A DNA stretch of 64,000 nt from Candidatus Woesearchaeota archaeon (GTDB lineage Archaea; Nanobdellota; Nanobdellia; Woesearchaeales; GW2011-AR9): positions 192,001-256,000 of the forward strand of contig JABHQW010000003.1 in NCBI GenBank assembly GCA_018696595.1, given 5' to 3'. The notes below the pieces were generated by a model. That model had not been told where the DNA came from. It saw only the letters and a program-made list of their open reading frames with translations, and ran no database searches. Positions 2,335 to 5,250 of this stretch are shown in pieces (the first letter of the stretch is position 1; every line of letters starts with the position of its first letter). The position numbers and the translations under genes are program-made.

Positions 2335-5250
2335 ATGTAGACGTTAGTAAGCGCATGCTGAATTGGTCGTTGCCTTCCAACTTACACACCGCTTCTATCA
2401 AACCGCTGTTATTGCGATGTCTTAAGGTGTCTCTTTTCTAGGTACGCTTCGTGCTTAGATGCTTTCAGCACTTATCGCTTATGGCGTAGCTGCTCGGCTT
2501 ACCCTTTCGGATAACCGATCGACCAGTGGCCACGAACCTTCGTTCCTCTCGTACTAAAAGGTCCTTCCTATCAGACACCCAACACTCCCAGTAGATATCA
2601 AACAAACTGCCTCACAGCGTTCTGAACCCAGCTCACGATCCCTTTTAACGGGTGAACACCCCCACCCTTGGCAGCTTCTGCACCGCCAGGATAGGAAGAG
2701 CCGACATCGAAGTAGCAAACCGCGCCGTCGATCTATTCTATCGTGTTCCAAAACGAACAACGAATATGAACTCTCGGGCGCGACAACTCAGTTATCCCCG
2801 GAGTAACTTTTCAGTCATTCCCAGCCCTCATTAAGAAGGCATGGGAGTTCGCTAGGCCACACTTTCGTGTTTGGAATTTGTTATGTTTAAAGTCCAATCA
2901 GGCAGACTTTTGCCCTTGCACTCAACTCCGGATTTCTAAACCGGATGAGTCTACCATTGGGCGCTATTGATATCTTTTCAACAGCGTGCCACCCCAGCCA
3001 AACTGTCCACCAACCGGTGTCCTCTCATAGAGAGTAAGTGATGAAATTTTTGTTAAGTGGTGTTACATTGGCGCCTATCGTATCTCCGAAAAGATACGCA
3101 TAACGGCTCCCACTTACGCTATGTAACAAAAACCGCACCACAGCGACAGGCTACAGTAAAGTTTCACGGGGTCTTCGCTTCCCACTGGAAGTCCCTGGCC
3201 TTTGCACCAGGATAGAGTGTTCGGGAGACTCTAGTTCGGGACAGTGGGGAAATCGTTATACCATTCATGCAGGCCGTCATTCAAACGACAAGGCATTTCG
3301 CTACCTTAAGAGAGTTATAGTTACTCCCGCCGTTTACCAGCTCTTCACCCCGTTGAACCGAAGCTTAAAGTACTGGCACTGGGCAGATATCACCTTCTAT
3401 ACTAAGCTTTGCAGCATTGCAGAAAGTTATGTTTTTGTTAAACAGTCGTTCCCCCCTTGTTATTGCACCCTGATATCGCACCTATGCAGATACGATTGCA
3501 GGGATCCCTTATACCGAAGATACGGGACTAATTTGCCGAATTCCCTGAACTAGATTAGACTCACACATCTTAGGCTTCTCACCTAGGGGCACCTGTGCCG
3601 GTTCTGGGTACGGTTATTTTAGATTTATCTAAATTTCTTTTTCATGGATTCGAGGAATCAGTCAAACTGACCATAGGCCCGCTCATCTTTATTTAATCCC
3701 GTTCTCATCATTACGATACTCCGGGGATTTATCTAAATTAACACATCAGAAAAAATGTGTTGACCTATCCGCAAATGTCAGAAATTTAGCTTGTGTTGCC
3801 ACGTATACTAAAATAGTAAAGGAATATTAACCTCTTTCCCTTTCCCCATACTCAATTACGAGTAAGGTTAGGACCGACTAACCCTTGGCTGACGAACATT
3901 GCCAAGGAACCCTTGCCCTTCCGACGACAGGGATTCTCACCCTGCTAAGATCCTACTACCACCAGGATATTCATTCTTTTAAGGTCCACTTATTCTTACA
4001 AAAAAGCTTCTACCCTAAAAAGACGCCTGCCTACACCTATTATTCATAGTCTATGGTATCGGCGGCTAGCTTAGACCCGTCAATTTTCGGGGCTCACGAC
4101 CTCAACGAGTAAGCTGTTACGCACTTTTTAAAGGATGGCTGCTTCTAAGCCAACCTCCTCGCTGTCTGAGATCATGAACACCCTTTACCCTTTATCACTT
4201 AGCTAGCACTTAGGGGCCTTAACCATAGTCTGGGTTGTTCCCCTCTCGGAAATCAAGTTTACCCCAAGATTCCCTGTTTCCCAGAGTCTACAATGTTGAA
4301 GCATTTGGAGTTGGACAGAAAACCGACAAGTTTCCTCGCCTAAATCTCCTATCCGTAGCTCTACAACCTCAACAATCTCGTCTGAGACTTGACTAAGGTC
4401 AATTTCGGCAGGAACCTGCTATAGCCGGGCTCGATTGGCTTTTCACCCCTATTCCCAAGTCAGAAAAACACTTGTACGTAGAACTTCTTCAGGCCTCCAC
4501 GAAGTTTAACCTCCGCTTCACCTTGCTCAGGAATAGATCGCTCGGTTTCAGGTAGTACCCAAGTGACTAAAGGCACTTTCATACCTCTTCCCTCGTAAAC
4601 TGCGGAATATCGCTCTCGCTGTGGATACCCTTTTACAGGTTATCCTCGCCACTTAGATACACTCCCTGGCACGTTATTCAAAACGCACGTTAGAACTCCG
4701 TAGAGCCCTAACTCACTATCACTACTAGATTTCAGGAACTTTTGACTCCCTGTCAAGGGTTCTTTTCAACTTTCCCTCACGGTACTTGTTTTCTATCGGA
4801 TTCGAAACGTATTTAGTTTTAGAGGTTAATGTCCCCTAACTTCTCACTCCATTTCCGAGGAGCAATACTCTGGATACTTCCAAAACCATTTTTCATTCTT
4901 CTACGGGACTATCACCCTGTAACGTGCTCTTTTCCAAGAAACTTCGAATCTAAAAAATGGCTGAAAAGGAAGTCCATAACACCACATCTCCATTACATTA
5001 CTGTAACGGATTCAGTTTGAACTGGACCGCTTTCAGTCGCTCTTACTCACGGCATCTCAATTGATTTCTTTTCCTGCAGGTACTAAGACGCTTCAATTCC
5101 CTGCGTTCCCCGATCCCAAAGGATCTAAGAGAGAGAAGACTCATTCGGAAATCTCTGGTTCAATGCTTACATTCAACTCGCCAGAGCATATCGTAGCTTG
5201 TCACGTCCTTCATCGGCGTTTCGAACCTAGTCATCCATCTAGTAGTATAA
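2335..5250 (-). rRNA. rrl: 23S rRNA (ends approximate) with one intron
   Basis: Reverse complement contains the PTC motifs GGAUAAC, CGAUGUCGGCUC and GAGCUGGGUUCAGAAC plus other LSU conserved blocks. Confidence 0.97.
2733..2765 (-). other. 33-nt BHB intron in the 23S helix 89 loop (between E. coli-equivalent 2477/2478)
   Basis: Interrupts conserved GAGUUCAU|AUCGAC; central helix GUUC/GAAU, 3-nt bulges AU|A and AG|A, internal hairpin UGUUC/GAACA. Confidence 0.88.

Follow-up and report, generated by a model that had tools for sequence, protein, structure and literature searches.

We analysed a 64,000-nucleotide (nt) stretch of DNA, hereafter the window (contig JABHQW010000003.1, positions 192,001 to 256,000), from a marine, Woesearchaeota-type archaeon of the DPANN group. 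The genome is 1.19 Mb in size and 97% complete. The window holds its sole ribosomal RNA (rRNA) operon, and a blastn search of the whole genome found one 23S copy. The subject of this study is a 33-nt insert in that 23S rRNA gene, located in the apical loop of helix 89 (H89). It very probably is an archaeal intron of the bulge-helix-bulge (BHB) type that lacks an open reading frame (ORF). The insert and the genes of the operon are as follows:

2325..5262, minus strand: 23S rRNA gene, matched over its full length by Rfam RF02540 (2606.7 bits).
2733..2765, minus strand: predicted 33-nt ORF-less BHB-type intron in the H89 apical loop (covariance-model alignment, intron-less relatives and register test).
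5429-5504, minus strand: spacer transfer RNA (tRNA) gene between 16S and 23S.
5547-7112, minus strand: 16S rRNA gene of the same archaeal rRNA operon (window 1-12000).

Alignment to the archaeal large-subunit (LSU) covariance model with a local cmscan places 35 nt in the apical loop of H89, where the model expects 2. The model consensus is ...AgAGcuCa[2]UcGAC... and this gene reads ...GAGAGUUCA[35]UCGAC..., leaving 33 nt extra. An earlier reading of the letters of the window (the sequence-only reading) had claimed a 33-nt insertion at 2733-2765 in helix 89, and the alignment bears this out. On the RNA strand, the reading across the insert is GAGUUCAU^AUUCG...GAAUAG^AUCGAC, where ^ marks a junction. 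An AU repeat lets the boundaries shift by as much as 2 nt; the BHB register picks 2733-2765. We take the insert to lie between U2477 and A2478 in E. coli numbering, by a hand count from the GGGAUAAC anchor on the E. coli sequence; the count was cross-checked on the known modified positions 2457, 2498, and 2503. The sequence-only reading had put the insert beside the peptidyl-transferase centre. The helix is correct, but the wording is loose, as the site is the distal tip of H89. This end of the helix faces uL16, helix 91 (H91), and the elbow of the A-site tRNA, not the catalytic pocket.

The insert was rightly described as having no homing endonuclease ORF, 33 nt being too short to encode one. 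The largest insert found at the H89 site, 137 nt, is likewise too short for an ORF of this kind (LAGLIDADG or other). A group I or group II intron is excluded because 33 nt is far below the length needed, and an Rfam scan of window 1-12000 at gathering thresholds gave rRNAs and one tRNA only, with no group I/II catalytic core. When the genome was searched for further copies of the intron, nothing beyond chance matches of 11-15 nt came up, so the intron is not repeated there.

The region around the site (50-75 nt) was folded, and minimum free energy (MFE) and centroid structures, pair probabilities, and constrained folds were obtained. From 5' to 3' on the RNA, the parts of the predicted BHB are:

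2768..2771, minus strand: 5' exon strand of the 4-bp central helix (GUUC, E. coli 2472-2475), which pairs with GAAU and covaries in 71 inserts.
2765..2767, minus strand: 5' bulge AU^A with the predicted 5' cut at 2766/2765, relaxed here (MFE and constrained folds).
2739..2764, minus strand: intron hairpin serving as the second flanking helix, with UCGU/ACGA and GUUC/GAAC stems and a 6-nt loop (folds).
2735..2738, minus strand: intron 3' strand of the central helix (GAAU; folds, and a 4-mer in register in 69/71 inserts).
2732..2734, minus strand: 3' bulge AG^A with the predicted 3' cut at 2733/2732, unpaired in MFE and centroid.
2730..2731, minus strand: 3' exon UC (2479-2480), whose partner is GA at 2772-2773; the Rfam consensus structure pairs gA with Uc.

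The GUUC/GAAU central helix is present in the MFE structure, with probabilities of 0.84-0.90 for its four pairs, and AGA forms a clean 3-nt 3' bulge in both MFE and centroid. Both flanking helices are present, the native H89 pairs on the exon side and the intron hairpin on the other. The native closing pair of H89, GA/UC, doubles as the exon-exon flanking helix. Cuts after the second base of each bulge yield GUUCAU+AUCGAC, which is the loop of intron-less relatives, GUUCAUAUCGAC; the claim that the cut sites exactly restore the conserved sequence therefore stands. As modelled, this copy is a BHB that is canonical in its 3' half and relaxed in its 5' half. The label 'canonical BHB' given in the sequence-only reading holds for the GUUC/GAAU helix and the 3-nt 3' bulge, but is slightly overstated for the 5' bulge, which is relaxed in the MFE structure.

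The same site is occupied in many other archaea. An insert at the identical position, 29-91 nt long and of differing sequence, is present in nine of 40 relatives, all nine from the same family or order, and others have an uninterrupted loop, GUUCAUAUCGAC or GCUCAUAUCGAC. We also scanned one genome per prokaryotic species for the pattern AGAGYUC plus 2 nt, 14-44 nt, and AUCGAC followed by a conserved downstream block. This species-level scan matched 69 contigs, 68 of them BHB-like. Their labels were Woesearchaeota/Nanoarchaeota (41), 'uncultured Methanosarcinales' (13), unnamed archaea (3), Altiarchaeales (1), Asgard (3), Thermoplasmata, Methanomassiliicoccales or 'Methanobacteriota' (7), and one bacterium. 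The bacterial match (Domibacillus, L089; L, G, and C numbers are our identifiers for loci, genomes, and contigs) was rejected as a chance match without BHB pairing. The 'uncultured Methanosarcinales archaeon' bins (L036 and 12 other loci) have H89 stems of DPANN type. Their label is unreliable because at least one such contig is identical to one in the window's own GTDB family, and the deposited names look like placeholders or errors.

Pooling of the loci gave 71 distinct inserts of 22-91 nt, otherwise unrelated in sequence and at exactly the same site, from Woesearchaeota/Nanoarchaeota, Thermoplasmata, Altiarchaeales, and Asgard. At a spacing of exactly 2 nt ahead of AUCGAC, 69 of the 71 have a 4-mer that pairs in full with the exon GYUC; the remaining two form three of the four pairs. 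Eight control registers together gave a single match over the same inserts. We regard this register test across inserts as decisive against chance. The pairing also covaries: the exon has GUUC or GCUC, and exon U/C2473 changes together with an intron A/G (41 U:A and 30 C:G, with zero exceptions among the 71). On each side, the first two nucleotides of the bulge differ freely between inserts. Cuts placed by the BHB rule restore the intron-less loop in all listed inserts except the chance bacterial match L089. Each of the 70 inserts that were folded formed an intron hairpin, of unrelated sequence. The 5' bulge is less uniform: it is strictly canonical (3-nt/0-nt) in 25 of the 70 constrained folds, and most of the other folded inserts have 5' loops of 3x1, 4x1, or similar near-canonical form, or one extra pair.

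A survey of DPANN 23S genes at 2477/2478, proposed in the sequence-only reading, found inserts as well. In a phylum sample of 201 genomes, ∼108 of which had the site assembled, 13 bear a verified insert (26-137 nt; counts are from retrieved loci only), and all of these have 4/4 central pairs. Apparent H89 inserts in four further genomes (G152, G179, G058, and G109) came from BLAST length differences, which are unreliable, and the retrieved loci have none at H89; they instead carry an insert of 21-47 nt in the H91 loop. Beyond the 71 pooled inserts, two longer ones, of 137 nt (L110, G047) and 107 nt (L111, G190), come from two genomes of one genus and are related to each other. They occupy the same H89 site with GCUC/GAGC pairing and are too short for a homing endonuclease. 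This distribution shows the tip of H89 to be a site for such putative introns that is common to at least four archaeal groups and is most often occupied in Woesearchaeota-type DPANN.

Close relatives give a view of how the intron is inherited. A genome of the same genus has a homologous intron (29/33 nt identical; flanking 23S 94% identical), with a 3-nt 5' bulge in its MFE structure, and two further family members have introns of 32-33 nt with a common central hairpin motif. On a tree of 23S fragments, the sister species bears a 39-nt intron of unrelated sequence, and there is no intron on the next branch. Resolution of the tree is poor, but the branches with good support require at least 3 state changes, and intron presence is no more clustered on it than shuffled labels. 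These comparisons suggest that the intron is vertically inherited within the genus, and that across the family and order it is often gained, lost or replaced.

The genome encodes the enzymes that splicing would need. There is one gene for the splicing endonuclease EndA (L031:1474-2097, minus strand). Its product of 207 amino acids has an N-terminal and a catalytic domain, with both PF01974 (101.9 bits) and PF02778 matched in one ORF, a domain make-up that corresponds to a single alpha unit. The ligase RtcB is encoded as well (PF01139, 560.1 bits). Its gene (G000:C6:188854-190164) lies ∼1.8 kb before the start of the window. It shares a strand with the intron-bearing 23S gene, whose 3' end is ∼4 kb away; this proximity is probably a coincidence. 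Several intron-bearing tRNA genes are predicted by aragorn, so the EndA/RtcB pathway would be needed in any case.

We consider it very probable that the 33 nt are an archaeal BHB intron excised by EndA, with the exons joined by RtcB. This agrees with the sequence-only reading and is supported by the register, the covariation, the fold, the patchy presence among relatives, and the EndA and RtcB genes. In the proposed mechanism, the H89 loop bases 2472-2475 (GUUC) of the folding pre-rRNA would pair with GAAU at the intron's 3' end. Stacked on either side of this central helix, the native end of the H89 stem (GA/UC) and the intron hairpin would leave the two bulges displayed four base pairs apart. 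EndA would then cleave after the second nucleotide of each bulge, and RtcB would ligate the exons, restoring the universal loop GUUCAUAUCGAC and allowing H89 to take its native loop. The pairing and flanking-helix steps are supported by sequence, fold, and covariation. Cleavage, ligation, and the lack of the 33 nt in mature ribosomes are what we infer by analogy with the established archaeal tRNA/rRNA intron pathway.

Several points weigh against the assignment as a spliced BHB intron. The 5' bulge in the MFE structure is 1 nt (A), followed by three A-U pairs (UAU/AUA), and is not a clean 3 nt. Leaving AUA unpaired, in a 4x2 internal loop, costs +0.2-0.8 kcal/mol over the MFE, and a strict BHB, with a 3-nt 5' bulge closed by U:A, lies ∼3.5-4 kcal/mol above it. 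The fold of this single sequence only moderately beats shuffled sequences (z = -2.2 to -2.3). Metagenome matches to the spliced junction are not transcripts; their 23S is only 84-90% identical, and they come from intron-less relatives, one of the three sitting on a 1.2-Mb contig. Two marine metatranscriptome runs (X4 and X5) contain ∼0.7 of the rRNA-operon words, a word share that we do not count as evidence of expression. A route to RNA-derived contigs via ORFs called inside the rRNA yielded 0/6 exact products in the protein collection. An EndA of a single alpha unit has classically been deemed strict for the canonical BHB. DPANN enzymes of the alpha4 type, however, are reported often to have an additional loop, L3, that goes with relaxed substrates (Kaneta et al. 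2018, PMC5829648).

Of the alternatives, the one that survives best is that EndA excises the insert while the exons stay unjoined, leaving a mature 23S rRNA broken at the H89 loop, comparable to the intervening sequences removed by RNase III in bacteria. The sequence evidence bears on recognition and cleavage geometry, not on ligation, and to that extent is compatible with fragmentation. The genome encodes RtcB, however, and the ends left by EndA, a 2',3'-cyclic phosphate and a 5'-OH, are those that archaeal RtcB joins. The cuts also restore the universal loop exactly in every lineage, which argues for rejoining because exact restoration matters only if the ends are ligated. We therefore hold fragmentation to be improbable.

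A second alternative is that the 33 nt are an expansion segment, a helix 89 extension kept in the mature ribosome. The inserts vary in length and form hairpins, as expansion segments often do. Besides an unrelated hairpin, however, the 71 inserts share only the 4-mer that pairs with 2472-2475 at a fixed 2 nt from the 3' junction. Such a fixed register is predicted of a splicing signal, and its retention would sequester universally conserved loop bases. The sister species has a wholly different insert sequence and the next branch none, and the tip of H89 is packed against uL16 and H91, with no space for 33-137 more nt. Retention as an expansion segment is thus slightly less credible than fragmentation, at a very low probability. 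Both suit the conserved register and the exact loop restoration poorly.

The weakest alternative, an artefact of assembly or binning such as a chimeric join within conserved rRNA, is scarcely tenable: contigs of several relatives start or stop at this site, so that assemblers evidently struggle there, but the same-genus genome, assembled separately, has the homologous intron with 29/33 nt identical, the same site and geometry recur in single-cell genomes (SAG AM-311 isolates) and in dozens of metagenome-assembled genomes of independent origin, and three DNA sequencing runs contain 0.80-0.85 of the sampled rRNA-operon words (word shares, not aligned reads).

Contigs that start or end at or near the H89 site are L012 (start of G001:C54), L105 (end of G073:C38), L117, L118, G084:C30, G132:C16, and G133:C18. 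Two of the breaks are on the intron boundary itself, as the congener's contig begins 1 nt before its intron and G073:C38 stops at the first base of the 3' exon. The breaks could reflect population variants with and without the intron, or graph tangles in conserved rRNA.

Other small inserts were seen in these rRNA genes. The window's 16S gene has an insert of 94 nt in the 790 loop (window 6288-6381, minus strand), where cmscan finds 96 nt instead of 2 between GGAUUAGAU and CCG. Judged by eye, this insert forms a canonical BHB: the central helix is UUAG/UUAA, the bulges are AU^U and AG^A, the flanking helix is CUGGAU/AUCCAG, and splicing would give back GGAUUAGAUACCC. This site is absent from the 13 16S loci of Jay and Inskeep (2015, PMC4496867). 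In the 23S genes of relatives, the loop of helix 91 is a second hot spot for mini-inserts (L102, L112, L113, L120, L121, L127, and L128). They lie at E. coli ∼2534, between GGUGCAGAA and GCUGCC, equivalent to window ∼2675/2676. They measure 21-47 nt, and each finishes with CUGU and 2 further nt, the CUGU being complementary to the exon GCAG in the same BHB register. The helix 91 loop of the window's own 23S gene has no insert. One relative's 23S (L102:1536-2296) also has a ∼760-nt insert, equivalent to window ∼3301 (∼23S nt 1960). Its position near the classical LSU 1923/1931 sites makes a group I or an endonuclease-bearing intron possible.

We raise, as a conjecture that we ourselves think doubtful, that the tips of H89 (2477/2478) and H91 (∼2534) could be pan-archaeal hot spots (DPANN, Thermoplasmata, Altiarchaeales, and Asgard) for ORF-less BHB mini-introns, which would persist or re-insert without a homing endonuclease. 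One option is insertion independent of homing endonucleases, for example by a reversed EndA/RtcB reaction on rRNA, reverse transcription, and recombination; alternatively, the introns could arrive by co-conversion with nearby mobile introns. A second option is selection, in which the sequestered loop bases might keep the A-site corridor of domain V inactive until a late, enzyme-gated assembly step. If the hot-spot reading is true, these loci would be a tractable case for how endonuclease-less introns spread.

Other consequences are practical. Small inserts in conserved loops of the 23S (and 16S) genes of DPANN and other uncultured archaea need to be stripped before alignment, primer and probe design, and structure modelling, and small rRNA inserts seem to coincide with contig breaks. 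If the 33 nt are spliced, EndA and RtcB of a reduced genome of 1.2 Mb would be essential for a working large subunit besides tRNA, a dependency relevant to organisms with minimal RNA-processing repertoires. The ∼70 independent inserts at one site are also a data set on what the archaeal splicing endonuclease needs in vivo. Read in this way, they suggest that a 4-bp helix in register is required, that 3x1 and 4x2 loops are tolerated at the 5' site, and that the sequence of the bulges is free.

BHB introns are known from archaeal 23S genes, the classical examples being the I-DmoI intron of Desulfurococcus mobilis and the ORF-less introns of Staphylothermus marinus. The insert described here shares with them the host gene, the cut by EndA and ligation, as proposed here, and a place in functionally central parts of domains IV and V. 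The classical introns are mostly hundreds of nt long, often encode a LAGLIDADG enzyme, and are located at positions ∼1930 and ∼2550. DPANN LSU genes with BHB introns have been shown in passing, in a figure only (Nawrocki et al. 2018, PMC6125680), and those cases share with ours the Woesearchaeota and Pacearchaeota lineages and the LSU host gene. The catalogue in that paper lists group I introns at LSU 1923, 1931, 2500, and 2593, and its text does not name helix 89. A full-text literature search found no paper naming helix 89 or LSU 2477/2478 as an intron site. We thus appear to have a known kind of element at a recurrent, unreported site.

There is also a close likeness to introns of the Thermoproteales. 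Small (<50 nt), ORF-less hairpin introns of the BHB type are known in the 16S rRNA genes of this order (Jay and Inskeep 2015, PMC4496867), in agreement with the statement in the sequence-only reading that BHB rRNA introns are known mainly from Thermoproteota. Like the H89 inserts, they are ORF-less, 20-50 nt long, built of a hairpin and a BHB core, placed in highly conserved rRNA loops, and patchy in distribution, and they are likewise presumed to be cut by the tRNA splicing endonuclease (PMC4496867). Some of them are thought to have spread by co-conversion with an adjacent intron that carries a homing endonuclease (PMC4496867), whereas no endonuclease-bearing intron was seen nearby in this 23S gene. 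The Thermoproteales introns belong to 16S genes of hyperthermophilic Thermoproteota, at 13 listed loci; the intron proposed here is in helix 89 of a 23S gene, in a marine DPANN archaeon.

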